Source: Clostridium cellulovorans 743B
Lineage (GTDB): Bacteria; Bacillota; Clostridia; Clostridiales; Clostridiaceae
Assembly: GCF_000145275.1 (NCBI RefSeq)
Contig: NC_014393.1
Span: 1,119,367 to 1,151,366, forward strand
Direction of reading: 5' to 3'
DNA: 32,000 nucleotides
In this document: positions 5,512 through 32,000 of the stretch, piece after piece
Layout of the letters: each line of letters starts with the position of its first letter
How positions within the stretch are numbered: the first letter of the stretch is position 1
Translations under genes and position numbers: made by a program
The notes under the pieces: model-generated
What the model was told of the DNA's origin: nothing
The model's database searches: none
The model's input: only the letters and a program-made list of their open reading frames with translations

Positions 5512-6157
5512 GTGTGTGAAGAGGCTGAAGTTATTGAATCTACACTTAATTCAAGGGTTTTTGTTGATAAATATACAAGAATTGAACACAGTGAATTAGG
5601 AGAAAAATTAAGGATAGAACGTAATAATCAAATTGTGTATTCATATAGGGGCAGATATTGCTATACAGGTGCAAATACAGTTATAAAGAATGCTCGTCTT
5701 GAAAGTTTTGTTTCAATAGCATGGAATGTTAGTATTGGTGGAAATACACATGATTTAAATCATATTACAACCCATAGTTTTCTTGTATACCCAAAATGGG
5801 AGATGGGAGATGGGAGGAAACGGAAACTGGAAATCGGCATCTGATGAATGTGAAATTGGGAATGATGTATGGATTGGTGCTGGAGCTAATATTTTAAGAG
5901 GAGTAACCATTGGGAATGGAGCAGTAATTGGAGCTTCAAGTGTAGTTACGAAAGATGTACCACCATATGCAATTGTAGTAGGTAATCCGGCAAAAATAGT
6001 GCGTTTACGATGCAAAGAAGAATGGATTGAGCGGTTGCAAAAGTTAAAGTGGTGGGAGTTACCAGAGGAAGTTATTCGTAATAATCTAGATCTTTTTAAA
6101 GAAGCGTTAACGAATGATGTAATAGAAAAGATTGAAAATATAAAAGCAAATCTCTAA
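5512..6157 (+). pseudogene. Hexapeptide-repeat xenobiotic acyltransferase (Vat/CatB-like), frameshifted
   Basis: ORFs 5512..5844 and 5783..6157 overlap in different frames. Together they give one XAT-like protein ([15 protein letters not shown] / [52 protein letters not shown]). The 5' end is uncertain (GTG start, no clear RBS). Confidence 0.8.
5796..5816 (+). repeat. ATGGGAG x3 tandem heptamer at the frameshift point
   Basis: Read directly: units at 5796..5802, 5803..5809 and 5810..5816. Removing one unit joins ..YPKWEMG to [21 protein letters not shown] in a single frame. Confidence 0.9.
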
Positions 6158-7869: not shown

Positions 7870-8943
7870 TTAGTCAGTTTTAGGTATAGATTTAAGGGTA
7901 TATTCTTCGAAGGGAGCAGATATTATAATACCTGATGAATCAAGTTTATAATTTGTTCCTTCAGTAATCTTTTTTTCATTAACTAAATTCATGCCAACAG
8001 TGTAAATAGTGTCTGCTAGAATTCGAGGATTATGAAAAACAGAACCAAGCATAAAACCTTTCTTAATTAATTCTTGAGCTTCTGGCAAAGCATCGATGCC
8101 AACCACAGGAATAGTTTTTGATTTATTTCCTTTATTATAACCATACTTTTGTAGACCTTCTATGGCTCCAATAGCGAGAGTATCATTGTTTGCAATGATT
8201 GCTTCAATTTTAGGACCATATCTTAAAAATAATGAAGTAATAGCATCTTTTGCTGTTTCTCTATTCCAATTACAAACTACTGTTGAAAGTTCATCGGTTT
8301 GTATTCCAGCGTTCTTAATTGTTTCTAGTGAATATTTTGTTCTTGTATCACTTAATGTACTATCTTTTTTTCCTTTTAACATAACATATTGAAGAATATT
8401 ATCTCCATTTTTATCCATGATTTTCTTGTTTGTTTTCCATTCATCAACAATTATTTGTCCTTCTAGTACAGGAGGGTCTTTTAGAGCTGCTGCTATAATA
8501 GCAATTTTTGAATAACTTTTCATAATATCTAAATTTGGAATAGTGGAAAGAAATAGAATTAATGCGATATTTTTTTGTTTGGCTCTATAAATAATATCTT
8601 CTAATATTTCTTGTTTGCTTTCAAAGATATTTAAAAATATAAGATCAAAATTTTTATTAATCATTTCATCCATAAGTTGATATTGTATAGCTGAATTTGC
8701 TTTCCCATCAAAAAAAGTAAATTCAACTTTGTCTGTATTCTCTTTTTCAATGTCTTCTAAACTTTTTTTTAGCAAGGAAAGATACATTTCTTCAAAGGAA
8801 TATAATAATATTCCTACTTTGATTGGATTTTTTGTACTAACATTTGAAGAAACTTTTATTGTTTTTAAGCCACAACTTGTTAGTGTAACAATAATAAAAA
8901 TTAAAGTAATAGTAAGTGTTAGAGTTCTTTTTAATAAATTCAT
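7870..8943 (-). CDS. Sugar-binding lipoprotein of the periplasmic-binding-protein (ribose/galactose, LacI-type) fold
   Basis: Lipobox LTSC after a hydrophobic N-terminus. PBP type I-like blocks (KVGILLYSF.., IANNDTLAIGAIEGL, VVGIDALPEA). No permease or ATPase gene is adjacent. Confidence 0.8.
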   Translation of the reverse strand: MNLLKRTLTLTITLIFIIVTLTSCGLKTIKVSSNVSTKNPIKVGILLYSFEEMYLSLLKKSLEDIEKENTDKVEFTFFDGKANSAIQYQLMDEMINKNFDLIFLNIFESKQEILEDIIYRAKQKNIALILFLSTIPNLDIMKSYSKIAIIAAALKDPPVLEGQIIVDEWKTNKKIMDKNGDNILQYVMLKGKKDSTLSDTRTKYSLETIKNAGIQTDELSTVVCNWNRETAKDAITSLFLRYGPKIEAIIANNDTLAIGAIEGLQKYGYNKGNKSKTIPVVGIDALPEAQELIKKGFMLGSVFHNPRILADTIYTVGMNLVNEKKITEGTNYKLDSSGIIISAPFEEYTLKSIPKTD

Positions 8944-10544: not shown

Positions 10545-11190
10545 GAGAAAAATATTGGTAGTAGATGATCATTTGGTAGTTAGGGAGGGACTAAAGCTAA
10601 TTTTTGAAACAGAAGAAGAATATGAAGTTATAGGTGAAGCAGAAAATGGAGAAAAGGCATTGGTTCTTATTGAGCAGTTAAAACCTGATGTGGTTTTGAT
10701 GGATTTGAATATGCCTAGAAGAAGTGGGCTAGAAGCAATACGAGCCTTAAAAGAAAAGAAAAATCCCGTTCCAATAATTATTCTAACAACCTTTAACGAT
10801 GAAAATTTAATCAGAGAAGGCCTTGCTTTAGGGGCTAGGGGGTATTTGTTAAAGGATAGTACTCGTGAGGAACTTATAAGAACTGTTGAGGCTGCAATCA
10901 GAGGGGAACTACTTCTTCAGCCTGAAATCAGTGGGATAATTTTTGGGGCAAAAAAAGAATCAAAAGAAAGTAATAATACTTTTAACGCAGGGATTACGGA
11001 AAGAGAATTGTTTGTTCTACAAGCAGTTGCAAGAGGTTGTACTAGTAAGGAAATAGCTGTTGATATGGGTATTGCTGAAAGAACTGTGAAAGCTCATCTA
11101 ACTAATATATACAGTAAGCTTAAGGTTGAGTCTAGACCCCAAGCAGTTGCAGTAGCTATAGAACAGGGAATCATCCATATTGAGAAATAG
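10537..11190 (+). CDS. NarL/LuxR-family response regulator
   Basis: ATG at 10537 (MDKRKILVVDDH) overlaps the kinase stop by 8 nt and follows GAGGAAA. Receiver plus C-terminal LuxR HTH (ITERELFVLQAVARGCTSKEIAVDMGIAERTVKAHLTNIYSKL). Confidence 0.9.
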   Translation: MDKRKILVVDDHLVVREGLKLIFETEEEYEVIGEAENGEKALVLIEQLKPDVVLMDLNMPRRSGLEAIRALKEKKNPVPIIILTTFNDENLIREGLALGARGYLLKDSTREELIRTVEAAIRGELLLQPEISGIIFGAKKESKESNNTFNAGITERELFVLQAVARGCTSKEIAVDMGIAERTVKAHLTNIYSKLKVESRPQAVAVAIEQGIIHIEK

Positions 11191-11271
11191 AAGGTATTTG
11201 AATTTAGCAGGTAATTATCAGAGGTAATCAATGAAAATATTGTAGCGTGTTTCTAAGGAAAGGGGAAAATT

Positions 11272-12102
11272 ATGAGAAAAGTATGTGTAATAACTGGTGG
11301 TGGCAGTGGTATGGGACTCGCAACTGCAAAAATAATAGGTAAGGATAACTATATTATTATTGTAGGTAGAACCATAAAGAAACTTGAAAAAGCGTTGGAA
11401 GAATTAAGAGCAGAAGGTATTGAGGCAGAAGCTTTTGCTTGTGATATTTCAGATGAAGCTTCAGTAAATAAATTAGCAGCCCATGCAAAGGAAATAGGAA
11501 CTATTTCTTCGGTAATACATGCAGCAGGAATGTCACCACATATGGGAGAGGCAGTAACAATAATGGAGGCCAATGCCTTAGGTACAATCAATATAAATGA
11601 GGTTTTTTATAAGGTTATGGAAAAAGGTTCTTGCATTATAGATGTATCATCTATGTCGGCTTATCTTACTCCGAAATTTATTATGCCCAAAGGTAGTTAT
11701 AAATACAGCAGAACTAATAAAGAAATTTTTATGAAGAAAATGATGGCAAGAGTTAATCTTTTCCCTAAAAAGGTTAGGTCAGGTGTAGCTTATGGCATCT
11801 CTAAAAACTTTGTTACTTGGTATGCAAAAACTGATGCTGCAAAGTTTGGGCAAAAGGGTATCCGAGTATTATCAATTTCCCCAGGATCTTTTGAGACACC
11901 TATGGGTGAAGTGGAAAAAGACGAAGTTGAAAATCTTATAAAATTTTGTGCAATAAAGCGACTGGGACATGTTGAAGAAATTGCAAATTTGATGGCATTT
12001 TGTGCCAGTGACAAGGCTGGATATTTAACTGGGGTGGATATACTTTGTGATGGAGGCTGTGTTGCCTCTGGATGTAATCCTCTTAAAATGAAGCAGAGTT
12101 GA
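11272..12102 (+). CDS. SDR-family oxidoreductase
   Basis: Rossmann motif TGGGSGMG. YGISK in the catalytic Y-x3-K position. RBS GGAAAGGGG upstream. Confidence 0.8.
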   Translation: MRKVCVITGGGSGMGLATAKIIGKDNYIIIVGRTIKKLEKALEELRAEGIEAEAFACDISDEASVNKLAAHAKEIGTISSVIHAAGMSPHMGEAVTIMEANALGTININEVFYKVMEKGSCIIDVSSMSAYLTPKFIMPKGSYKYSRTNKEIFMKKMMARVNLFPKKVRSGVAYGISKNFVTWYAKTDAAKFGQKGIRVLSISPGSFETPMGEVEKDEVENLIKFCAIKRLGHVEEIANLMAFCASDKAGYLTGVDILCDGGCVASGCNPLKMKQS

Positions 12103-12270
12103 AATTCATATAAGATATTATAAATCTAAGATAGTATAATGTGCATAATTAAATTTGCCCCCAAAACATATATATGACCATGGAAATTAACAAAGTTGAC
12201 GAAGCCACACTACTGCAGTGATATATAGGTTATATATTGATAGTAAAGCTGAACCTAGATAAAAGCTTTA

Positions 12271-12309
12271 CCCAAAGGTGCAAATGCCAGATGCCCAAAG
12301 GTACAATTG
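12271..12309. promoter_or_regulatory. Two copies of the CCCAAAGGTRCAAWTG motif upstream of the second SDR gene
   Basis: CCCAAAGGTGCAAATG at 12271..12286 and CCCAAAGGTACAATTG at 12294..12309, starting 23 bp apart. The second copy is identical to the site at 9183..9198. Confidence 0.45.
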
Positions 12310-12409
12310 AGGAAAAGGTTTAAGAATTATATACTAAGAACATAAAAGATAGCCTGTTGTGCTAACTGAATATTAAGGATTATAAAATAATTAATCATAG
12401 GGGGAAATT

Positions 12410-14130: not shown

Positions 14131-14608
14131 ATAGATCCTCCATTCAAAATATCAATCTAATTTATTTAAAGCATTGAATAAGTAATTGGTATAAATTTAT
14201 TATATGGTAACTTATACTTTATAACAAGTTTAATATATGCACATAAACGGTTATAATTACTAATTGTATCTTCTAGATCCCAATATGCTAGTTGTTGCTT
14301 TTGATTACTTTCTTTTTCTAGGCTTTTCAAGTTAAGAAGTATTTATACATAACTAGGACCTTTTATTGAGGTTGAAATGATAAAAAGAGTTAGGAAATAA
14401 AAGGTTGTTTATCGAAAATTAAATGATGTGAGTTAAAAATTTGCATATGTTAGTTAAATGTTTACAAAATATTCAGCAAAAAAATAATCATTTATACGAA
14501 TTACTATATTGAGTTACTTTATAGATATATGAGTGCTTATTGAGAAAATTGCATAACTCAAAAACAAAGCATTTGTATAAAATCAATATTTTGAAAGGAA
14601 TGATGGGA

Positions 14609-16903
14609 ATGAAAGTCAAACAATTAGTGAAAAAGACTACAGTTAGTGTTGCTACATTAGCTATCTTTTCCACAATGCTTGGGGTACAAGCACACTCTGA
14701 AACTGTAAGCAAGACTTACAATTATGCAGAAGCATTTCAAAAATCAATGTACTTTTATGATGCAGAGAAATGTGGAGCAGGTATTACAGGTGGAAAGTTA
14801 GAATGGAGAGGGGATTGTCATACTGATGATGCAAAGATCCCTTTAGTGCCAGCAGGAAAAGGCGCTGATGGTGCAATGGCAGAGAAAGGTGTTTCCTTAA
14901 CTCAAGAATTTATTGATGCCAACAGAAAATATCTAGATCCTGATGGTGATGGAACTGTTGATTTAAGTGGTGGTTTTCATGATGCAGGAGACCATGTTAA
15001 GTTTGGGTTACCTGGCTCTTATGCAGCAGCTACTTTAGGTTGGGGTTTTTATGAATTTAAAGATGCTTATGCCAGAATCGGTGAAGAAGCTCATATGAGA
15101 GATTTATTAAAGTGGTATTCAGATTATTTCTTACGTTGTACTTTCATGAATGAAAATGGAGAAGTTGTGGCTTTCTGCTATCAAGTTGGAGAAGGAAGCT
15201 CCGACCACAGCTACTGGGGTGCGCCAGAACTTCAACCTACACTTAGACCTGCATATTTTGCAACTCCGCAGACTCCTGCTAGTGACCAAGTTGCTGGAGC
15301 TGCTGCAGCACTTGCGATAATGTATTTAAATACGAAAGATACTGATGCTGCCTATGCTGAAAAATGTTTAAGTACTTCAAAAGCTCTTTATAATTTCGCA
15401 GTTAAGTATCGTGGACTTGGATACTCTGGAGGGTTCTATGGTTCATCTTATGATGAGGATGAACTTTCTTGGGCAGCAGTATGGCTTAATATTGCAACAG
15501 GAGAAAAATCTTATATTAATGACATAGTTGAGGTTTCTCCAGATGGACGTTATTTAGGCTATCTTGGAAAGATAATTAAATCTACTCAGGATGATTGGCA
15601 AAATATTTGGTGTCATAGCTGGGATGTTGTTTGGGGTGGTGTATTTGCGAAGCTAGCTCCAATAACTAATACAGAGAGAGATTGGTACATATTTAGATGG
15701 AACATCGAATATTGGTCAGGGGTTCCACATGAAGACCCAAGTGACAAAACCTTTATGGCTGCTACTCCAGGTGGGTTCAAGGTAGTAAATACTTGGGGCT
15801 CAGCACGTTATAATTCAGCTGAACAATTATGTGCCTTAGTATATAAGAAGGAAACTGGTAGTAGTGATTTCGATGCATGGGTTAAGAGCCAAATGAATTA
15901 TATATTAGGTGATAATCCTTTGAATAGATGCTATGAGGTAGGTTATGCAGAGAATTCAGCAAAGCATCCACATCACAGAGCTGCTCATGGTTCTATAACT
16001 AACAACATGGGTGTCCCAAATGAACACAGACATACTCTTTGGGGAGCTTTAGTAGGAGGTCCAGACCAGACTGATAGCCATAAAGATGATACAACGGACT
16101 TTGTAGGTAATGAGGTTGCAGTAGATTACAATGCAGGTTTTGTTGGAGCTTTAGCAGGTATAACTAAATATTTTGGACAAGATCAAATGCCACTTGAAAA
16201 TTTTCCACTAAAAGAAGCTCCTGTAGATGAATTCTTTGTGGAATCAAAACTTGAGCAGGAAAATGGTGAAAGAACACAGGTTACAATAAGAGCCAACAAT
16301 CTTACAGTACATCCACCTCATACTGAAGACACAATAAAGGTTAGATATTTCTTTAATATATCTGAGCTTATGCAATATAACCAAGGAATAGATGCGATAA
16401 CTTGTCCTGTTATGTACGATCAATCAAATACTGTTGATGTTAAGGGTGCAACTATAAGTGCTCCAGTTGAATGGGATAAAGAAAAGGGTATTTATTATGT
16501 TGAAATTGATTGGAGTGGCAATGCTATATACGGTTCTAGAGAATTCCACTTTGGACTTGTAACAGGTCAAGATTCAAATTGGAAGGCTCATTGGGACCCT
16601 ACTAATGATTGGAGCCGCCAAGGTGTAACAGAAGAATATGCTCAAAACCCTCATATATCAATGTATGTTAATGGAAAGAAAGTATTCGGAGAAGAGCCAA
16701 CAACAAAAGTTCTAGTAATTAAAGGTGATGCTGATGGGAACGGAAAGGTTACAGCCATTGATTTAGCATACATTAAGAAATATATTTTAGGCCAAGGTAG
16801 CATAATTTTCCCAGGAGGCATAGAAGTAGTAGATATGAATGGAGATGGTGTAATAAATGCAATTGACCTTGCCCTCTTAAAGAAGGCTTTATTAGGACTT
16901 TAA
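14609..16903 (+). CDS. Cellulosomal endoglucanase: signal peptide, GH9 catalytic domain, CBM3c-like module, type I dockerin
   Basis: GH9 motifs DLSGGFHDAGDHVKF, HHRAAHGS, GALVGGPD, DYNAGF. The C-terminus has duplicated dockerin segments GDADGNGKVTAIDLAYIKKYIL and DMNGDGVINAIDLALLKKALL. The likely start is ATG 14609 (MKVKQLVKK...), 9 nt after AAGGA. The 14540 ORF start is an upstream extension. Confidence 0.9.
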   Translation: MKVKQLVKKTTVSVATLAIFSTMLGVQAHSETVSKTYNYAEAFQKSMYFYDAEKCGAGITGGKLEWRGDCHTDDAKIPLVPAGKGADGAMAEKGVSLTQEFIDANRKYLDPDGDGTVDLSGGFHDAGDHVKFGLPGSYAAATLGWGFYEFKDAYARIGEEAHMRDLLKWYSDYFLRCTFMNENGEVVAFCYQVGEGSSDHSYWGAPELQPTLRPAYFATPQTPASDQVAGAAAALAIMYLNTKDTDAAYAEKCLSTSKALYNFAVKYRGLGYSGGFYGSSYDEDELSWAAVWLNIATGEKSYINDIVEVSPDGRYLGYLGKIIKSTQDDWQNIWCHSWDVVWGGVFAKLAPITNTERDWYIFRWNIEYWSGVPHEDPSDKTFMAATPGGFKVVNTWGSARYNSAEQLCALVYKKETGSSDFDAWVKSQMNYILGDNPLNRCYEVGYAENSAKHPHHRAAHGSITNNMGVPNEHRHTLWGALVGGPDQTDSHKDDTTDFVGNEVAVDYNAGFVGALAGITKYFGQDQMPLENFPLKEAPVDEFFVESKLEQENGERTQVTIRANNLTVHPPHTEDTIKVRYFFNISELMQYNQGIDAITCPVMYDQSNTVDVKGATISAPVEWDKEKGIYYVEIDWSGNAIYGSREFHFGLVTGQDSNWKAHWDPTNDWSRQGVTEEYAQNPHISMYVNGKKVFGEEPTTKVLVIKGDADGNGKVTAIDLAYIKKYILGQGSIIFPGGIEVVDMNGDGVINAIDLALLKKALLGL

Positions 16904-20453: not shown

Positions 20454-21221
20454 CCACCTGTAGATGTAGTTATTTACAGGTGGTTATATTTTTGTTTTAC
20501 GAATACCACAGGTTTTACCTGTGGTTCTAAAAAGCTTCTAGCGATGAGTAGAAAAAAAGAATACCTCCAATGTAAAATGGTAGTAGGTTTTCCGACCACA
20601 ACCAAAAGTACAAAGGAGGTATATCCGTAATGGATAATAGTAGTTTAGCACATAGTAAATGGAATTGTAAATATCACATAGTCTTCGCACCAAAGTATAG
20701 GAGACAAATCATATATGGAAAAATAAAAGCGGATATAGGGGTAATACTTAGAAAGTTATGTGAACATAAAGGAGTAGAAATTATTGAAGCAAATGCATGT
20801 AAGGATCATATACATATGCTTGTAAGTATACCTCCGAAGTTAAGTGTCTCTCAGTTTATGGGGTATTTGAAAGGTAAGAGTTCATTGATGATTTTTGACA
20901 GACATGCAAATTTGAAATATAAATATGGGAATAGGCAATTTTGGTGTAAAGGCTATTACGTTGATACAGTTGGAAGAAACAAAAAGATAATAGAAGAATA
21001 CATAAAGAATCAAATACAGGAAGATTTAGCATATGAACAAATGAGCTTGAAAGAATTTATTGACCCGTTTACGGGTGAATCAGTAAACAAAGGCAAAAAA
21101 TAAAGCACCTTTTAGGTGCAGCCAGTAAAGGTATGCGGTTGGCAAACCGCTCAATGTGCGAGTAGCACGGCCAGTAACATGCCCTTATAGGGCTAAAGCA
21201 AACCACCCGTTTGACGGGTGG
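20454..21221 (+). mobile_element. IS200/IS605-family insertion sequence (IS200-type, tnpA only); boundaries approximate
   Basis: A Y1 transposase gene is flanked by subterminal hairpins. Left: CCACCTGTA..TACAGGTGG (20454..20483, followed by a T-rich run) and CCACAGG/CCTGTGG (20506..20524). Right: GCACCT/AGGTGC (21105..21119), GCGGTT/AACCGC (21135..21150) and CCACCCGT/ACGGGTGG (21203..21221). There are no terminal inverted repeats, as expected for this family. Confidence 0.8.
20630..21103 (+). CDS. tnpA: IS200-family Y1 (HUH) transposase TnpA
   Basis: 157 aa with WNCKYHIVFAPKYRR, the HUH motif DHIHMLVSIPPK, and a catalytic-Tyr region GYYVDTVG. RBS AAAGGAGG. Confidence 0.92.
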   Translation: MDNSSLAHSKWNCKYHIVFAPKYRRQIIYGKIKADIGVILRKLCEHKGVEIIEANACKDHIHMLVSIPPKLSVSQFMGYLKGKSSLMIFDRHANLKYKYGNRQFWCKGYYVDTVGRNKKIIEEYIKNQIQEDLAYEQMSLKEFIDPFTGESVNKGKK

Positions 21222-23987: not shown

Positions 23988-24210
23988 AGTATCTTGAGAA
24001 TAATTTGAACATGTTGCTTATTTTGGGTGTTAATATTGTATCAGATCAATCAAAGAGATGTGAGAAAGAAAGGTAAGAATATACATTATTTAATATAACT
24101 TAGAATAAGCCTTGTCCGAAAATTATACGTGAAAGGCAAATTTATATATCATACAACAGTTAGTTTAGTTGGTTAGTAATATCTAATTTAATCAAAAAGG
24201 TGGAATGATA

Positions 24211-25470
24211 ATGATTAATAATAATAAAGTTACCAATGAAGTTAAGTATTATTTAAGCAATAAAGTTAAGCATCATTTAAGCAATAATGCCATTGATGAA
24301 ATCAAGTTATGCAAGGTCATTATTAGCTTATCTCATAATTATAAAATCGAGAATTTAGTAAAGGCAATAAAAGGCTTACCAGATATAAATATAGAAGCAA
24401 TTGATAATACAGAATATTTTGTATTTGCATCACTTACACCTGAACAAATTAATTTACTAGAACATATTCCAGAGGTTAGGAATGTATGGATTGATAAAGA
24501 AGTAGAAAAAATGGATTATGAAGTTTTAAAAACTATAAATGAGCCAGCTTTTCTTTTTGATGGAACTGAATTTTGTAATGATATAACATGGGCTGTTTTA
24601 GATGATGGAATTGATAAAATGCATGATGCGCTTAAATATTCAAATGTAATAGACATTGATCTTACAGGAGAGGGACCCACAGGTAAACATGGTACACATG
24701 TAGCTGGAATAATTGCTGGTTGGGATCCTAGTAATCATTTTTCAGGGGTTGCACCTAAATGTAAATTATATAATTTTAAAGTAATTAGTGAAAATTCGTC
24801 AAGTTCCCTTAGTCTTTGTATAAAAGCTATGGAACAGATAAGGAAGATTAACAGTGAATCAAATGAATTAGTTATACATGGTGCAAATTTAAGTTTCGGT
24901 GCAGCAAATTCAATTAAAGAATTTTATTCTGGACATAGTCCTATTTGTGAAGAGGCCAATAGATTAGTGGATTCAGGAGTAGTTGTATGTGTGGCAGCAG
25001 GAAATTATGGAGCTCAGGCATTTGAGGTACCAGGTGATGATATCAGTCCCAAAATATGGGCAAATTATGAGATGATTTCTGTGACGGATCCGGGTACTGC
25101 AGAAAAAGTAATTACAGTAGGTTCAACTTATAGAATTGAACCTGAAAAGTATGGGATTTCTGTATTTTCCTCTAAAGGGCCTACTGGTGATGGTAGGATA
25201 AAACCAGATTTAGTAGCGCCGGGTGACTGTATTTCTTCAGCGTTTCTTAATAATTCTTATATATCAGCAAGTGGGACAAGTTGTGCAACACCATTTGTTT
25301 CAGGTGCGGTAGCTCAACTTTTACATAGCTATCCACAATTAATTGGGAATCCAAGTAAAGTAAAAGAAATTATTATTTCATCATGCAAAGATTTGAAAAG
25401 GGATAATTATTTTCAAGGACATGGATTACTAGACTTGGGAAAAGCTCTTGAATTGGCAAAAGAGAGCTAA
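24211..25470 (+). CDS. S8 (subtilisin-like) serine peptidase with I9-like propeptide and no signal peptide
   Basis: Catalytic triad contexts AVLDDGID, HGTHVAGIIAG, SGTSCATPFVSGAVAQLL, with oxyanion Asn in GANLSFG. ATG 24211 lies 7 nt after AGGTGG; ATG 24205 is too close. The N-terminus is hydrophilic and contains a 24-bp tandem repeat (24240..24287, VKYYLSNK/VKHHLSNN). Confidence 0.88.
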   Translation: MINNNKVTNEVKYYLSNKVKHHLSNNAIDEIKLCKVIISLSHNYKIENLVKAIKGLPDINIEAIDNTEYFVFASLTPEQINLLEHIPEVRNVWIDKEVEKMDYEVLKTINEPAFLFDGTEFCNDITWAVLDDGIDKMHDALKYSNVIDIDLTGEGPTGKHGTHVAGIIAGWDPSNHFSGVAPKCKLYNFKVISENSSSSLSLCIKAMEQIRKINSESNELVIHGANLSFGAANSIKEFYSGHSPICEEANRLVDSGVVVCVAAGNYGAQAFEVPGDDISPKIWANYEMISVTDPGTAEKVITVGSTYRIEPEKYGISVFSSKGPTGDGRIKPDLVAPGDCISSAFLNNSYISASGTSCATPFVSGAVAQLLHSYPQLIGNPSKVKEIIISSCKDLKRDNYFQGHGLLDLGKALELAKES

Positions 25471-25509
25471 TTTTTACCTTATTTAGCCACTTGAAAGGAG
25501 GTGAAAAAG

Positions 25510-25716
25510 ATGAGTAAGAATATAGATGATTTAATAAAAAACCTACGTAGTGCAGCAGATCAATTAGATTCAATAAAAGATTCAGCTTCAGATGAAGATA
25601 TTAAAAAAGTAATAGAAAATAATGTTGAACCTATGAGTTGCTGTGGTACTTGTACTGGTGTACCACCAATACCACCATGTGAAAATACATGTGTAAGTCT
25701 TCCACCATTCATGTAG
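25510..25716 (+). CDS. Candidate RiPP precursor peptide (68 aa: acidic Cys-free leader, Cys/Thr/Pro-rich core)
   Basis: GGAGG (25497..25501) lies 8 nt before ATG 25510. Sequence: MSKNIDDLIKNLRSAADQLDSIKDSASDEDIKKVIENNVEP / MSCCGTCTGVPPIPPCENTCVSLPPFM. It sits immediately upstream of two rSAM-SPASM genes. Confidence 0.75.
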   Translation: MSKNIDDLIKNLRSAADQLDSIKDSASDEDIKKVIENNVEPMSCCGTCTGVPPIPPCENTCVSLPPFM

Positions 25717-25778
25717 AAATTTTTTATTACATTATGTACTCATACAATCTATCATAAATTGTATGCTATGTACACATG

Positions 25779-25801
25779 TTTGGCGGCTTTCAGCCGTCAA
25801 A
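25779..25801 (+). promoter_or_regulatory. Intercistronic hairpin between the precursor and the first maturase gene
   Basis: TTTGGCGGCT (25779..25788) pairs with AGCCGTCAAA (25792..25801): 10 bp including one G-U, 3-nt loop, no T-run. A second 8-bp hairpin CATACAAT/ATTGTATG lies at 25741..25765. Confidence 0.5.
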
Positions 25802-25857
25802 CAATCTATTAATAAATTCGTAATGTAACTTTCATTTTATAAATGTAGGAGGGAAAT

Positions 25858-27240
25858 ATGAGAGAGGATTATTATCCATTATTAAAAGATACAGTAAGAA
25901 TAAAAAAAATGCCTTCAGGTTGTTGGGTTGTAGATTTAGTTGCAGATAATGGAGCGGTTATACATCCATTCGAGGCATTCGCTTTATCTCTCTGTACAGG
26001 TGAATATACTCTTGAAAATCTGAAATATATATTTTCATCAGTTTTTAGTATAGAAAAAAGCGACTATATTGATACTATTTTTAATAAGCTCGACAGATAT
26101 ATTATATGGAAGGACAAGGTTTCAGCTTGTAACCATAAATATGATCCAAAAACATTTTTATATGATATTAAAACTACAGAAAATTCTTCTAAAAACAGAT
26201 TTGATAGCCCTGGTGAGATGACTATAATTCTAACACATAACTGCAATTTTAGATGTATATATTGTTTCAACAATTCAGGAGAGGCAAAAACTGTTCAGTT
26301 AAATACCAATGAATGGCTTGAGGTAATAAAGCAAGCTAGGGAATTAGGAATAGTAAAATGTACTGTAAGTGGTGGAGAGCCAATGTTACATCCCGGATTT
26401 TTTGATATTCTAAGAGCTATTACGGATAGTGGAATGTCTGTATACATATGCACAAATGGAAGTCTTGTTGATGAAAATGTGGTAAAACAATTTAAGGAAA
26501 TAGGATTGCCATGTGTTCAATTTAGTCTTGATGCTGGTACACCAGAAATTCATGATAAAATGGCAACTGTAAAAGGAACATATCCAAAAGTAATTAATGC
26601 TATTAAACTCCTTGTAGGTGCTGGGATAGATGTATATATCAAGTCGGTAATTACACCTGTCAATTATAGTGATATAAGTAATCTTATAGATTTATGTAGT
26701 GAATTAGGTGTGAAACAATTAGTACTTGATAGATTTGATCTTAGCAATGCAGGCAGAGGAGGTACTGAACTTTTTATGACAAGAAAGCAAGAGCTTGACT
26801 TAGAAGATTTAGTACAAACAAAGATAAAAGAACTCTCAGGGAAAATGATACTTAAGGCAGCTACAGTTCAAAGATGTTGGTCTGGTGAGGATAATATAGT
26901 AGTATGTGGAGCATTTAGACGTTCTATAAATATTCTTCCGAATGGTGATATAAGTGTATGTGAAAAACTCATCGAAGTACCTGAGATGACAGCAGGTAAT
27001 GTAAAAGACAATACACTTGAGGAGATATGGAATTCTAAAAAAGTTAGTGATATTGTTAATCCAAGTAAAGATATTATAGACGAACCTTGTAAAACTTGTG
27101 AACACTTAGATCATTGCCATACAGGATGTTATGCTTTATCTTTACTTGTCAGTGAAAATCCATACTCTATAGATCCAAGATGTTGGAAAGGAAATTATTC
27201 TAATAAATTTTTTATGGATTCAACTTATGAAAGGATATAG
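25858..27240 (+). CDS. Radical SAM / SPASM-domain peptide maturase with N-terminal RRE(PqqD)-like extension, paralogue 1
   Basis: CNFRCIYC (26242..26265), SGGEPMLHP, CX12GX4C (CGAFRRSINILPNGDISVC) and CX2CX5CX3C (CKTCEHLDHCHTGC). About 110 aa precede the rSAM core. RBS AGGAGGG. Confidence 0.88.
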   Translation: MREDYYPLLKDTVRIKKMPSGCWVVDLVADNGAVIHPFEAFALSLCTGEYTLENLKYIFSSVFSIEKSDYIDTIFNKLDRYIIWKDKVSACNHKYDPKTFLYDIKTTENSSKNRFDSPGEMTIILTHNCNFRCIYCFNNSGEAKTVQLNTNEWLEVIKQARELGIVKCTVSGGEPMLHPGFFDILRAITDSGMSVYICTNGSLVDENVVKQFKEIGLPCVQFSLDAGTPEIHDKMATVKGTYPKVINAIKLLVGAGIDVYIKSVITPVNYSDISNLIDLCSELGVKQLVLDRFDLSNAGRGGTELFMTRKQELDLEDLVQTKIKELSGKMILKAATVQRCWSGEDNIVVCGAFRRSINILPNGDISVCEKLIEVPEMTAGNVKDNTLEEIWNSKKVSDIVNPSKDIIDEPCKTCEHLDHCHTGCYALSLLVSENPYSIDPRCWKGNYSNKFFMDSTYERI

Positions 27241-27242
27241 TT

Positions 27243-28646
27243 ATGTCAATTATAAAATTTGAAGTGAATTCTAGGGAAAGACACCTTTATCCAGTGCGAG
27301 CTAGATATATAAGGACTCATATTATGAATAATTATAATATGATATCTAATTTTAGAGATGGTGGATCTGAATATATATCAACACAAAAAGCATTGATTTT
27401 TGAATTATTTAGCGGCAAATATGATATTGAAACTATTACTAAAATATTTTCAGGTACATTTGAGATTGATTTAGAAAAATCAGAACAATGTATAAAAGCT
27501 GTTCTGGATGAATACGCTTCACATATAACATTCTATCCACATGAAATCCAAACAGATTTATCCTGTGATCCCATGAGGATTCTGAAAAAGTCTTCTACAA
27601 AGTGGCAATATAATCCTGTGAGATATGAAAGTCCTGAGGAGTTAGTGCTATCCCTTTCATATGTGTGTAATCATAAATGTATTTATTGTTGTAATAGTTC
27701 TGGAAGCCGTATAGAAGATGAACTTTCGTTTAATGATTGGATTAAAGTAATTGACGAAGCTGCAGATTTAGGGGTTGAAACAATACTTTTTTCTGGTGGC
27801 GAACCATTAATGTATCCAGACTTTATAAAGTTAGTAAAGCGAACAAAAGATAATGGTATATATCCAATAGTTTCAACTAATGGTACATTGATATCTGAAG
27901 AAACTGCAAAACAACTTTCAGAAGCAGGTATAGACTTTGTTCATTTAAGTATGTCGGCAGCAAATGAAGAATTATATGATAGTATTATAGGTTATAAAGG
28001 TAATCTTCCTAAAGTGAAAGCTGCAATAAAAGCATTAAAAGATAATAATATTTATATTAGGTTAAAAGTGGTTTTAATGCCTGTGAATATAAAGCATATT
28101 GAGGAATTGTTAGATTTCTGTATTGAAAATAAAGTAGATTGCGTACATTTAGCGCCATTTATACTTACACATATATCACGAAATGGGAAAGAACTCATGC
28201 CCTCAGTAAACGATTTAAATAACTTGAAAAAAGTGATAAACAGTAAGAGAAATAAAATTAAAATATTAGAACCTTCTGTTGAGGGAATGTGCTGGAGTGG
28301 ACCAACTGACATTGTAAAATGTGGTGGAATAAAATCTAAACTGACGATTATTTCAAATGGGAATATAACACTTTGTGAGACTCTAGGTAAGACCCCTAAT
28401 TTTATATTAGGTAATGTGAAAACAACAAAAATAAAAGATATATGGAACTCTGATTTACCTGATAATATATTAAAGGTAAATATGAAATTAGTTGAAGAAC
28501 CCTGCAAAAGTTGTGAGTATTTAGAAGGGTGTAAAACAGGTTGTTTTATGTGTTCATTAATATATTCTGATAATTCATATTCAGTTGATCCAAGATGTTG
28601 GAAAGCTAATATCTCGAATAATGCTTATAGAAGTATTTATAGTTAG
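27243..28646 (+). CDS. Radical SAM / SPASM-domain peptide maturase with N-terminal RRE-like extension, paralogue 2
   Basis: CNHKCIYC (27666..27689), SGGEPLMYP, CGGIKSKLTIISNGNITLC and CKSCEYLEGCKTGC. It shares the C-terminal DPRCWK.N.SN tail with paralogue 1. It starts 2 nt after the preceding stop. Confidence 0.88.
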   Translation: MSIIKFEVNSRERHLYPVRARYIRTHIMNNYNMISNFRDGGSEYISTQKALIFELFSGKYDIETITKIFSGTFEIDLEKSEQCIKAVLDEYASHITFYPHEIQTDLSCDPMRILKKSSTKWQYNPVRYESPEELVLSLSYVCNHKCIYCCNSSGSRIEDELSFNDWIKVIDEAADLGVETILFSGGEPLMYPDFIKLVKRTKDNGIYPIVSTNGTLISEETAKQLSEAGIDFVHLSMSAANEELYDSIIGYKGNLPKVKAAIKALKDNNIYIRLKVVLMPVNIKHIEELLDFCIENKVDCVHLAPFILTHISRNGKELMPSVNDLNNLKKVINSKRNKIKILEPSVEGMCWSGPTDIVKCGGIKSKLTIISNGNITLCETLGKTPNFILGNVKTTKIKDIWNSDLPDNILKVNMKLVEEPCKSCEYLEGCKTGCFMCSLIYSDNSYSVDPRCWKANISNNAYRSIYS

Positions 28647-28708: not shown

Positions 28709-29842
28709 ATGAAATATATTTTTTTAAGCGATGTTCATATAGGTGAAAATATTCCAGAAAACTGGTATCAGAAATCTGTTCATCAAGTATACCTTAAAGC
28801 TATTTTACAATACATACAAGCAAATGCACAGCAAATACAAGATGTTGTTATTCTTGGAGATTGGTTTGATTCATGGATGTATCCGCCTGAACCTCAAATT
28901 TCAGCTACAGTAACTGAAATCATAAATAATAATCTCGAAGTGTTTACTGTGCAGGATGATGGAGATTTTATTACTTGTATGGATAGTATAAAAGGAGACT
29001 TATATTATGTTCGTGGAAATCATGATATGACTATAGATTTCAATGAATTAAATAATTATATAAAGCTTCATAGTAAGAAAAACAAACAAGTAGTATGTTT
29101 GGATGAAGCTTATGGGGTAAATGGCATTTATGCTGAGCATGGTCATTACTTTGATTTACTTTGTAAACCTGATCTCGGTGACAAAAATCTGTACAAGCCG
29201 TTACCTATAGGTTATTTTGTTTCAAGAGTTTCAGCTTTGTATTGTCAACAAAAATTGCAAGAGGCTGGTAATCAGAATGCAGCTCAACTACCTGGTCAAG
29301 GAAACCCTGATATGTCCAGTATTTTGAAGGCAATAGTGTCAAATTATTCTGGAGATTATAGTAATTTTGCAAATGTGATAATGTCAACCCTTTCAAATTT
29401 AGTTAAGTGTCCGGATATGACTAAATTAGTTTTTACAATGCCTGATGGTACAGTAATAAATGCAGCAGATGTTGCAAAGATGTATCCTGATATTTTGAAA
29501 AATCAGCAAGACTTAACTAGCTTACTTGTAGTTGATGCGGACAACTCTTTAGACAATAATGGTGAAAATTTATGTAATAGTAGTTATAAAGGAATTAAAA
29601 ATAGAGTTGTAGTAATGGGACATACGCATGTAGATAGACTTCAAAGTCACTATACATTATTTAATGGTAAGACTATTTACGTCAATTCAGGTTTTATGTG
29701 TCCAGCAATTCCAGACATAAGTACTGGTATGGTAATGACATTTACTGAAGTTGAACAAAATGGTTCAACATTTACAGTTAGGTTAAAGAAAGTTAATTAT
29801 CCAGGCACAAGTATATCAACGTTAACAGAAGCTACTATTTGA
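28709..29842 (+). CDS. Calcineurin-like metallophosphoesterase
   Basis: Metallophosphoesterase (MPE) motifs LSDVHIG, GDWFDSW, RGNHD, EHGH and MGHTH. RBS AAGGAG. No signal peptide. Confidence 0.8.
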   Translation: MKYIFLSDVHIGENIPENWYQKSVHQVYLKAILQYIQANAQQIQDVVILGDWFDSWMYPPEPQISATVTEIINNNLEVFTVQDDGDFITCMDSIKGDLYYVRGNHDMTIDFNELNNYIKLHSKKNKQVVCLDEAYGVNGIYAEHGHYFDLLCKPDLGDKNLYKPLPIGYFVSRVSALYCQQKLQEAGNQNAAQLPGQGNPDMSSILKAIVSNYSGDYSNFANVIMSTLSNLVKCPDMTKLVFTMPDGTVINAADVAKMYPDILKNQQDLTSLLVVDADNSLDNNGENLCNSSYKGIKNRVVVMGHTHVDRLQSHYTLFNGKTIYVNSGFMCPAIPDISTGMVMTFTEVEQNGSTFTVRLKKVNYPGTSISTLTEATI

Positions 29843-30056: not shown

Positions 30057-30731
30057 TTATTTAATGATACTCTCTACATAAAGAGTAAATGCAGTTTTTT
30101 TACTTTCATTGCCTTGTGCATCTTTATATACAGATATAAACTTTCCGTCTATATAAGAACTTTTTTTATTAAAGCTTGTGGTTCCATTAAAGTAAAATTG
30201 GGAACTAGAAGCTTTAATGTGTGTAACACTAAAAGTTGGATTAGTGTCGAGATTTGTTACTTTAAAAGTAGCTCCGTCCTCATTAATAGATAATTCTTTA
30301 GTGACTCTAGAACTTGCAGATAATTCTTTGGTGTCTCCAGAACTTACAGAAGATACTGAGAACGGATACTCGCAGCCAAATATAGGACTAGTGTTATTAA
30401 TTGCAAGAGCATTAGAAGAAGAAAGTTTGATAGCAAACATTAAGGGCTCATAAGGTACTATTTCAATCCAGCAATCTTCAAAACCTTGTCCAAAGCTTAA
30501 ATTAGTATCTATAATAATTTTTGACATATGATTATCTAAATATATTTCACCAGATACTTGTGGCAGGCATTCGGAAAGATTTTTGATTTTATTGTTGATG
30601 TCTAAGGAAAATTTAATGTTAGAGGTATTATCAGGGGTTGTTATGTATATTTCTGTAGAACTTAGCGTATTATTTTGAAACTTTGGATTAAAAATTACAT
30701 TTATAGAACTTGGTGTCTTTATATTTGTCAT
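30057..30731 (-). CDS. Hypothetical protein (224 aa, Ser/Thr/Asn-rich, no signal peptide)
   Basis: A strong RBS AAGGAG precedes the ATG on the minus strand. The gene lies 42 nt downstream of the LytTR regulator gene. I recognise no family. Confidence 0.7.
   Translation of the reverse strand: MTNIKTPSSINVIFNPKFQNNTLSSTEIYITTPDNTSNIKFSLDINNKIKNLSECLPQVSGEIYLDNHMSKIIIDTNLSFGQGFEDCWIEIVPYEPLMFAIKLSSSNALAINNTSPIFGCEYPFSVSSVSSGDTKELSASSRVTKELSINEDGATFKVTNLDTNPTFSVTHIKASSSQFYFNGTTSFNKKSSYIDGKFISVYKDAQGNESKKTAFTLYVESIIK
30288..30347. repeat. 30-bp tandem duplication inside the hypothetical CDS
   Basis: AGATAATTCTTTAGTGACTCTAGAACTTGC / AGATAATTCTTTGGTGTCTCCAGAACTTAC (26 of 30 identical). It encodes the ..TKELS.. 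decapeptide twice on the minus strand. Confidence 0.8.
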
Positions 30732-30773: not shown

Positions 30774-31535
30774 TTACAAACCAAAGAGGCTTTTAAAACT
30801 AGTCATATAACTTCTGCTTACAGTTATATCAGAGTTGGAATCTCCATCCATTATTAACTTAAAGGTGCTATTGAACCAAGGAATAATTTCAGCTATCTTT
30901 TTAGTATTCACGATGAAGCTTTTGTGACAGCGAAAGAAACTAAGTTCATTTAATCTATCCTCATAATAATTAAGAGTTTCTTTGCTAGTGTAAGTCTTTC
31001 CTTTACAGGTGTTAATTTTCACATAACCACATTCTGAAAAAATAAAGCTTATATCTTCAATATCGCAAAGAAAGATTCTATCATTTTCCCATAGAGGTAG
31101 CTTTGAAATATTAGTTTTCATAGCTTTTTCTTTTATAAATTGATTTTTTTTAAATTTTTCCTTGGTAGTTTGGTCAACAGAAAACTTACTTAGTCTTTTA
31201 ATTGTTGCTTTTATTCTTTGTGGATCGATAGGCTTTAGTATATAGTCGATAGCACTTAACTCGAAGGCTTTTATCGCATAGTCGTCATAGGCAGTAACAA
31301 AAACAATTTTCATTTCCTCGTCATGGGATAAGATTTCTGCTGCACAAGATAACCCGTCAATTTCAGGCATGGAGATGTCAAGAAAAACTGCATCAGGTTT
31401 GTCAGTAATAATTTTCTTGATAGCTTCCAATGAGTCTTGGTACATTCCTATAATTTCAATATCCTCTTCTTTTGATAAGTAGTATTTAAGGTTATTAAGA
31501 CTTGCTAATTCATCGTCTACAAGTATTACTCTCAT
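30774..31535 (-). CDS. LytR/AlgR-family response regulator (receiver plus LytTR DNA-binding domain)
   Basis: MRVILVDDE.., FLDISMPEIDG, and a C-terminal LytTR-like segment (FFRCHKSFIVN, ITVSRSY). Confidence 0.9.
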   Translation of the reverse strand: MRVILVDDELASLNNLKYYLSKEEDIEIIGMYQDSLEAIKKIITDKPDAVFLDISMPEIDGLSCAAEILSHDEEMKIVFVTAYDDYAIKAFELSAIDYILKPIDPQRIKATIKRLSKFSVDQTTKEKFKKNQFIKEKAMKTNISKLPLWENDRIFLCDIEDISFIFSECGYVKINTCKGKTYTSKETLNYYEDRLNELSFFRCHKSFIVNTKKIAEIIPWFNSTFKLIMDGDSNSDITVSRSYMTSFKSLFGL

Positions 31536-31677: not shown

Positions 31678-32000
31678 TCAAAGATTTAGAGCATCACTTA
31701 AAGGTAATTCTAAGGTTACAATGGTACCTATTCCCTTGGTACTTTTTATTTTAATGGATTTGCCGTAAATCCTTTGTATACGGTTCTGAATATTTGAGAT
31801 ACCTATTCCTGCTTTCTTATCTGAACTGTTAAGTAAGGCAGTTAATTTTTCTTCAGTCATTCCTACTCCATCATCCTCAACGATAATAATAAGCATGTTA
31901 TTATTTTTTTTAACTGTGAGTCTTACAGTGCCTCCATCTTTACAGGGCAGTATTCCATGTCTTACTGAGTTTTCTACAATTGGTTGAATGATATATGCAG
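31678..32000 (-). CDS. Sensor histidine kinase, C-terminal HATPase part only (gene continues beyond the window)
   Basis: The minus-strand frame is open from nt 32000 (..AYIIQPIVENSVRHGILPCKDGGTVRLTVKK..) into the 31678..31896 ORF. N-box QPIVENSVRHG and G-boxes DDGVGM and GIGISN resemble LytS/YesM-type kinases. Confidence 0.8.
   Translation of the reverse strand, partial: AYIIQPIVENSVRHGILPCKDGGTVRLTVKKNNNMLIIIVEDDGVGMTEEKLTALLNSSDKKAGIGISNIQNRIQRIYGKSIKIKSTKGIGTIVTLELPLSDALNL

Follow-up and report, generated by a model that had tools for sequence, protein, structure and literature searches.

A five-gene operon of Clostridium cellulovorans 743B pairs two paralogous radical SAM/SPASM enzymes with a single precursor peptide

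Introduction

Pathways characterized so far for peptides synthesized on the ribosome and modified after translation (RiPPs) that depend on radical S-adenosylmethionine (rSAM) enzymes mostly use one maturase per precursor type, and the best-studied systems with two such enzymes have several precursors. The subject of this study is a five-gene RiPP operon in a 32-kb stretch of the Clostridium cellulovorans 743B genome, the whole of which is referred to as the window. The operon encodes an S8 peptidase, a precursor peptide, two rSAM/SPASM enzymes in tandem (here A and B), and a metallophosphoesterase; it probably represents an uncharacterized family whose modified peptides arise by the action of several enzymes on a single substrate.

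The closest described arrangements are those of thuricin CD and ruminococcin C. The thuricin CD enzymes TrnC and TrnD are both needed on a given peptide; each is an intact rSAM enzyme, and together they form an obligate complex that needs only one of the two radical activities (PMC12093266). In ruminococcin C, with its five precursors and two enzymes, RumMC2 alone installs all four Cα-thioethers (PMC8188230). In a 2014 survey of RiPPs in anaerobes, lanthipeptide and thiopeptide clusters are the only ones for which C. cellulovorans is named. A literature search returned nothing on the accessions of the operon, on DUF6765/PF20551 (encoded at several related loci), or on a metallophosphoesterase in an rSAM RiPP cluster; a further search on ranthipeptides and multi-rSAM systems returned nothing specific to this cluster.

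The operon and its precursor peptide

The operon comprises the following features, with positions given in the window.

24205-25470, plus strand: S8 (subtilisin-type) serine peptidase (Pfam Peptidase_S8, E 1.4e-43)
25510-25716, plus strand: precursor peptide, 68 aa, ADL50707 (exact match to database entry)
25777-25803, plus strand: 12-bp stem-loop in the spacer between precursor and A (RNA folding)
25858-27240, plus strand: rSAM/SPASM enzyme A, 460 aa, ADL50708 (Radical_SAM E 4e-31, SPASM E 1e-11)
27243-28646, plus strand: rSAM/SPASM enzyme B, 467 aa, ADL50709 (Radical_SAM E 1e-32, SPASM E 3e-9)
28709-29842, plus strand: calcineurin-like metallophosphoesterase, ADL50710 (Pfam Metallophos and Metallophos_2, E 3e-8 each)

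By exact look-up, four of the operon proteins are identical to ADL50707-ADL50710; the S8 translation, as delimited here, gave no identical entry. The precursor is composed of a leader (~42 aa; motif IDDLIKNLRSAADQLDSIK) and a 26-aa core, SCCGTCTGVPPIPPCENTCVSLPPFM, which contains five Cys. An AGGAGG site lies 8 nt ahead of the ATG at 25510; the GTG at 25501, which an open reading frame (ORF) lister had given as the start, overlaps this site, and the ATG yields the 68-aa product of GenBank.

A family profile built from 41 precursors was run on all six frames of the window; its sole match is at 25495-25713 (E 2e-20), the next having an E of 0.35. In a profile search of 5.8 billion proteins, the single family member labelled C. 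cellulovorans is the same 68-aa peptide. An earlier reading made from the DNA letters without database searches (the sequence-only reading) had seen one precursor and proposed a re-scan for small ORFs; the six-frame scan adds no second one, and no further C. cellulovorans precursor, which that reading had named as a refutation, was found in the window or in the protein database.

The family is small, with 41 members recovered by a word-indexed search and 17 matches among 1.84 billion representatives in an exhaustive HMMER search; it has no match to any curated Pfam or NCBIfam model. All family precursors share a leader helix of the form (I/L)(D/E)xL(I/V)KxLRxAADxLExxK and a core starting with CC. 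Cys44, Cys45, Cys48, Cys57, and Cys61 are invariant in a 39-member alignment, from which P0224, a precursor that stands with A alone and does not have Cys48, is excluded. Precursor homologues adjoin A/B homologues in 10 other loci. A separate protein, P0255 (1179 aa), matches profile positions 42-60 in 17 repeated stretches and is a Cys-rich repeat protein.

Related loci and the ratio of enzymes to precursor

The window and the ten loci recovered with DNA form a set of 11, each of which was scanned 7-8 kb to either side. The six-frame profile scan finds one precursor in 10 of the 11 loci and two in L003; the single precursor is accompanied by one, two, or three rSAM genes, with three in five of the loci. 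The single precursor seen in the sequence-only reading is thus recovered at 10 of the 11 loci, but the ratio of enzymes to precursor is not constant: L003 has two precursors with A and B, and L087 has A alone.

Three types of locus can be distinguished. Type I (the window, L001 from C. felsineum, L088, L089, and L003) has the S8 peptidase, precursor, A, B, and phosphoesterase, and its cores carry five Cys in the form SCCGTCT...PPCxNxC; in L003, where the two precursors stand with A and B, the phosphoesterase-type gene is upstream on the opposite strand and has no detectable similarity to that of the window. Type II (L002, L004, L086, L090, and L091) has one precursor and three rSAM genes (A1, B, and A2) and is without the S8 gene; its cores are longer and carry six Cys in the form CCNACQAISSxCVPDxTPxKCxGGCTxTSFAF, and its accessory gene encodes a DUF6765 protein or, in L004, a phosphoesterase. 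Type III (L087, with the same arrangement on a Logan contig) has a precursor, A alone, and a phosphoesterase; the core of its precursor P0224 (120-401 of L087), LCCSSRFIFNPCVTCSSYTKGCLMVPR, does not have the third Cys of CCxxC. The number of enzymes therefore tracks the type of core: A alone occurs with no third Cys, A and B with the five-Cys core, and A1, B, and A2 with the six-Cys core. The L087 core hints that B may act at or through the third Cys of CCxxC.

In L004 the third rSAM gene (10942-12319) is broken in two, with radical SAM on a 306-aa part and SPASM on a 150-aa part, which is either a frameshift, a sequencing error, or incipient decay of a paralogue. A degenerate DNA pattern specific for B recovered three short JGI metagenome contigs, each with an A-type gene beside B. 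A contig scan based on a mixed A/B alignment was set aside; it had settled on generic rSAM motifs (CNFRCIYC, GGEP...), and its 80 matches were unrelated SPASM loci of at most 34% identity that did not include the known relatives. Those 80 loci served as a 1.06-Mb negative control for the B-specific pattern.

Enzymes A and B

A and B align by BLASTP at 34% identity over 450 columns (E 4e-93), colinear from end to end. The pairwise comparison proposed in the sequence-only reading bears out its description of the two as colinear paralogues, and the translations contain all five of the shared blocks that it quoted. The two proteins have the same motif spacing: CX3CX2C, the motif of the SAM-binding [4Fe-4S] cluster, is followed by CX12GX4C-X42-CX2CX5CX3C-X17-C, which fits the general seven-Cys SPASM motif of two auxiliary clusters, CX9-15GX4C-gap-CX2CX5CX3C-gap-C. 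The barrel cysteines are Cys129, Cys133, and Cys136 in A and Cys142, Cys146, and Cys149 in B; the SPASM cysteines are Cys350, 368, 411, 414, 420, 424, and 442 in A and Cys360, 378, 421, 424, 430, 434, and 452 in B. All three plus seven show 100% conservation across 46 A-type and 20 B-type proteins. Loss of cluster ligands from one paralogue had been raised as a possible objection to a two-enzyme system; both keep every ligand.

The N-terminal region of both enzymes, which in A spans about residues 1-100, is predicted to fold like a RiPP recognition element (RRE) of the winged-helix, PqqD-like kind. AlphaFold2 models with predicted local distance difference test (pLDDT) scores of 90.1 (A) and 86.1 (B) place four strands, three helices, and one strand ahead of the barrel, the N-terminal strands and three helices being modeled at a pLDDT of ~88-97. 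Over the full length (~462 columns), N-terminal domain included, the models align with SuiB, an RRE-rSAM-SPASM protein, at E 5e-24 (A) and 5e-22 (B); the matches that follow are PqqE and SkfB for both, and CteB for A (E 1.7e-17). Pfam PqqD has no match in A or B. On the basis of the models and the SuiB alignment, the RRE-like N-terminus claimed earlier for each enzyme is accepted at the level of predicted fold.

Several differences between A and B are fixed within each family, including F131/H144, C198/S211, Q221/H234, and D291-R292/A304-P305, and C22, C168, and C198 are invariant Cys found only in A; the fixed differences fit different substrate handling. Only 35% of A and 15% of B proteins have an eighth Cys with which auxiliary cluster I could be completed, and its rarity would leave that cluster with an open iron site. 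In CteB, a thioether former, an open iron site on auxiliary cluster I reportedly binds the substrate Cys.

The junction between the two genes is compact. The 2-nt separation described in the sequence-only reading (TAG-tt-ATG) is confirmed, given the 467-aa start for B, and a GAAAGGA Shine-Dalgarno-like site lies inside the end of A. The start of B is annotated in two ways: RefSeq (WP_242655221.1) begins at Met28 and gives 440 aa, and GenBank (ADL50709) begins at 27243 and gives 467 aa. The longer form is preferred because Pro17, in its YPV motif, is invariant in 20 B-family proteins and because C. felsineum (L001) has the identical 2-nt junction; the RefSeq model, by omitting 27243-27323, probably truncates the RRE-like domain of B. 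Across loci the A-to-B spacing ranges from -8 to +83 nt and mostly amounts to an overlap or at most ~20 nt; the 2-nt gap recurs in L003 as well as L001, and the genes overlap in L088 and L004. With this spacing, B is translationally coupled to A.

No curated model reaches its cut-off with either enzyme. The best, PqqE (TIGR02109), scores 157.7 (A) and 164.8 (B) bits against a cut-off of 381; the mycofactocin maturase model scores 154 bits (A) against 265, StsB 122 (A) and 93 (B) against 625, AlbA 98 (A) and 65 (B) against 850, SkfB 92 (A) against 300 (this model is not among the 25 listed for B), and PapB 78.7 (A) against 340. The closest solved structure by sequence is also PqqE (6c8v; E 5e-28 for A, 1e-21 for B). 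With scores under the cut-off, a precursor unrelated to PqqA, and a fused RRE in place of a separate PqqD, the enzymes do not belong with PqqE. By the AlbA, StsB, and SkfB models they do not group with the sactisynthases in sequence, and the PapB score, along with a core that has no repeated CxxxD/E motif pairing Cys with Asp/Glu/Asn/Thr acceptors, does not place them among the ranthipeptide maturases. A and B are therefore regarded as members of the rSAM/SPASM superfamily (PF04055, PF13186) that fall in no characterized sactipeptide or ranthipeptide family. The label 'sactisynthase' is not earned for A and B, as no model for sactipeptides or ranthipeptides comes near its cut-off and the best is PqqE.

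Evolution of A and B

The A family comprises ~50 clusters at 37-70% identity and the B family ~22 clusters. In neighbour-joining trees the B-type proteins fall into a single clade whether they come from type I or from type II loci (99 of 100 bootstraps), the A group takes in the first and third rSAM genes of type II, and the clade of A and B together stands apart from other SPASM enzymes (98 of 100). Identity averages 43% among A proteins, 42% among B proteins, 28% between the two families, and 21.5% to outgroups. In all 10 loci with B, its gene is the second of the rSAM genes. A and B are thus sister orthogroups from an old duplication inside this system, and the duplication predates the split between the locus types.

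Ratios of nonsynonymous to synonymous substitution rates (dN/dS) between C. cellulovorans and C. felsineum are 0.19 for A, 0.14 for B, and 0.22 for the metallophosphoesterase, values that are rough because dS (~1.0-1.2) is near saturation. By these estimates A and B are under purifying selection; with both copies intact and constrained, neither is a decaying duplicate.

A proposed division of labour and its alternatives

The favoured explanation, held with moderate confidence, is a division of labour in which A and B act non-redundantly on one peptide. It is preferred because the number of enzymes tracks the type of core, a lineage with A alone exists, and B keeps its catalytic motifs. Both enzymes would recognize the one leader helix of the 68-aa precursor, and the crosslinks in its 26-aa five-Cys core would be shared out between them, each enzyme making a different subset; most probably these would be thioethers from Cys, formed by way of H-atom abstraction. 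A and B may work one after the other or in a loose complex. The leader would then be removed near the EPM/SCC boundary by the S8 peptidase in the cytoplasm, and the phosphoesterase would carry out a further step. The idea in the sequence-only reading that several enzymes work on one peptide is favoured by the intact ligands, purifying selection, fixed gene order, and single precursor; its second option, a heteromeric enzyme, overlaps with the division of labour, and sequence does not separate the two.

Several points weigh against the favoured explanation. Thioether formation is a guess from the Cys-rich core, the curated models being far below their cut-offs. The link between core type and enzyme count comes from one A-only lineage on two contigs, the two precursors of L003 allow one enzyme per peptide there, and the saturation of dS blurs the dN/dS values. 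No exporter or immunity gene is conserved across the loci. The TrnC/TrnD pair is a precedent for intact rSAM enzymes that work as an obligate complex (PMC12093266).

That precedent gives the leading alternative, in which A and B are an obligate heteromeric maturase of the TrnC/TrnD type, with only one radical activity essential and the partner serving mainly in substrate binding or scaffolding. TrnC and TrnD behave in this way though both are intact rSAM enzymes (PMC12093266). B is coupled to A through the short gaps and overlaps described above, is never found without an A-type partner in the 10 loci with a fully readable rSAM block, and again has an A-type gene beside it on the three short metagenome contigs. 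However, A is the only rSAM enzyme in L087, which has a leader of the same type and the phosphoesterase, so A-type enzymes need not depend on B; moreover, B keeps the ten cluster Cys and the GGEP and TNG motifs in 20 of 20 proteins, which exceeds what a scaffold needs, and is at least as constrained as A. An obligate heteromer is considered possible, if on balance unlikely.

It is more doubtful that the two enzymes perform different chemistries, one forming thioether rings and the other an epimerization, a C-C or C-O crosslink, an oxidation, or a decarboxylation. This would agree with the low identity between A and B (28-34%), with family-fixed differences in barrel strands (CTNG/STNG, QxSLD/HLSL, and LDRFD/HLAPF in A/B), and with the position of both outside any characterized family; the nearest solved enzymes cover both C-C (PqqE, SuiB) and C-S (SkfB, CteB) bonds. 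The core, however, is almost without the aromatic or Lys residues used in known C-C crosslinks, its five Cys are invariant save in one lineage, and the RiPP epimerase EpeE falls far below SPASM maturases in the fold search; all of these objections are indirect.

That each enzyme has its own precursor, the second lying elsewhere in the genome or unannotated, is highly improbable: small ORFs are often missed by gene callers, the six-frame scan covered 32 kb of a 5.26-Mb genome, and L003 does combine two precursors with A and B, but the window gave a single six-frame match, the 5.8 billion proteins (in which this genome is represented from NCBI, JGI, and UniRef) gave one match from C. cellulovorans, and exactly one precursor is present in 10 of the 11 loci, including the five with three rSAM genes.

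Accessory genes and regulation

The translation of the S8 peptidase contains the triad motifs VLDDG, HGTHVAG, and GTSCATP and no signal peptide, and its gene is directly upstream of the precursor in L001, L003, L088, and L089; the protein is likely to be a cytoplasmic leader peptidase. The metallophosphoesterase carries SDVH, GDWFD, GNHD, EHGH, and GHTH, and its orthologues lie 3' of the rSAM genes in L001, L004, L087, L088, and L089 (23-58% identity); a search with it gave marginal LpxH matches only.

DUF6765 genes are found in L002 (12337-13413), L086 (5334-6470), L090 (8413-9618), and L091 (4050-5225). Each related locus has either a metallophosphoesterase or a DUF6765 gene, never both, and the two are unrelated to each other by BLAST. 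Three of the four DUF6765 proteins have weak, sub-threshold matches to zinc-dependent phospholipase C (E 0.014-0.087), and the invariant residues of the group are mainly His and Asp; a profile of the four has no meaningful match among PDB sequences. DUF6765 could be a non-orthologous replacement for the phosphoesterase step, against which it is noted that the clusters contain no kinase or nucleotidyltransferase. A broader proposal, tentative and rather unlikely to hold as a whole, is that of a new RiPP class with a ~26-32-residue CCxxC core, one to three rSAM/SPASM paralogues that each add a chemically or positionally distinct crosslink, and a phosphoester-hydrolysis step by a metallophosphoesterase or by DUF6765 (possibly zinc phospholipase C-like).

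The RNA between precursor and A folds at -33.6 kcal/mol (z = -3.7), and a second hairpin is found upstream of the 12-bp stem-loop. C. felsineum has an equivalent hairpin (L001, about 7921-7949) followed by a U-rich tail (z = -6.5); compensatory changes relate the two stems (GGCGGC/GCCGUC against GACAGC/GCUGUC). The stem-loop is possibly a partial terminator or a transcript-stabilizing hairpin and may set the ratio of precursor to enzyme transcript. A simple terminator scan found none and did not call the 25777-25803 stem-loop either; a sigma-70 promoter scan gave 47 sites against 42.5 ± 5.2 in shuffled sequence, which is no excess, and no promoter is claimed.

Two possible regulatory features lie beyond the operon.

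30774-31535, minus strand: LytTR-type response regulator (Pfam Response_reg and LytTR)
31678-31896, minus strand: histidine-kinase fragment running toward the window end (Pfam HATPase_c)

A LytTR regulator and a histidine kinase flank three of the 11 loci, namely the window (30774-31535 and 31678-32000), L004 (14227-16202), and L091 (1-3841). The three regulators share 22-26% identity and for that reason are not counted as a conserved part of the system; the flanking pairs suggest regulation of the peptide-signal type in loose association. An ORF downstream of the operon (30057-30731, minus strand) was left out of the cluster because it is unrelated to the ORFs at the same position in L001 and L003.

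Other features of the window

An IS200-like Y1 transposase gene (20630-21103; Pfam E 5e-41) lies ~3 kb upstream of the operon, and the genes that neighbour the operon are entirely different between C. cellulovorans and C. felsineum, a difference consistent with a five-gene cassette that moves as a unit. Two ORFs of 110 and 124 aa overlap at 5512-6157; each matches hexapeptide-repeat transferase models, and together they are probably one acetyltransferase gene broken by a frameshift. The gene at 14540-16903 encodes a GH9 cellulase that also carries CBM3 and a type I dockerin; such a cellulosome component is expected for this organism and is unrelated to the operon.

Comparison with known systems

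The related loci offer a natural series in one small family, with one, two, or three paralogous enzymes per single precursor, and co-expression can directly test in what way one leader and a short core are shared among several radical enzymes. The family is rare, its peptide has no curated model, none of its enzymes reaches a model cut-off, and a so far unexplained phosphoesterase is co-conserved with it; for new crosslink chemistry in Clostridia and in Lachnospiraceae of the gut, the family makes a reasonable lead, though not a categorical surprise.

In PqqE and MftC systems the chaperone, PqqD or MftB, is a protein of its own, whereas A and B carry the RRE as part of the enzyme, and the operon precursor has neither a PqqA-type Glu/Tyr nor a mycofactocin-type C-terminal Val-Tyr. 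GeoRSP maturases are among the best curated models for A and B but remain far below cut-off. CteB/thermocellin, PapB/freyrasin, and QhpD resemble the present system in their Cys-rich precursor and enzymes with RRE and SPASM domains, and the S8 peptidase beside the precursor recalls QhpE, to whose model the match is very weak (E 0.004); those pathways, however, have one enzyme each where this one has two, and the operon core, unlike ranthipeptides, has no repeated CxxxD/E or CxxxN motif. The SynChlorMet cassette (ScmE/ScmF; TIGR04250, TIGR04251) also holds two different rSAM/SPASM proteins; its models score 84-121 bits with A and B against cut-offs of 400, and it differs in taxa and precursor. 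SynChlorMet is a bioinformatic precedent for several SPASM enzymes per cassette and is itself uncharacterized.

Ruminococcin C of Ruminococcus gnavus (RumC1-5, RumMC1/RumMC2) likewise has two RRE-rSAM-SPASM enzymes in one operon; the seven-Cys SPASM motif is shared with A and B, and the hosts are gut or anaerobe Firmicutes (PMC8188230). Its two enzymes point to redundancy or substrate specialization, whereas A and B belong to old orthogroups that are conserved separately and have a single substrate; as an analogy, drawn in the sequence-only reading, it is weak, because one of its enzymes makes all four bridges. The two-enzyme logic is shared with thuricin CD (TrnA/TrnB, TrnC/TrnD; Bacillus thuringiensis): both systems have two adjacent intact rSAM/SPASM paralogues. 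Thuricin CD is a two-component antibiotic with two precursors for its two rSAM genes, whereas the window has one; A and B are set apart from its enzymes by way of the AlbA and StsB models rather than the TrnC/TrnD sequences. What is distinctive about the C. cellulovorans operon and its relatives is the conserved layout of several enzymes to one peptide, together with an unexplained phosphoesterase or DUF6765 partner.

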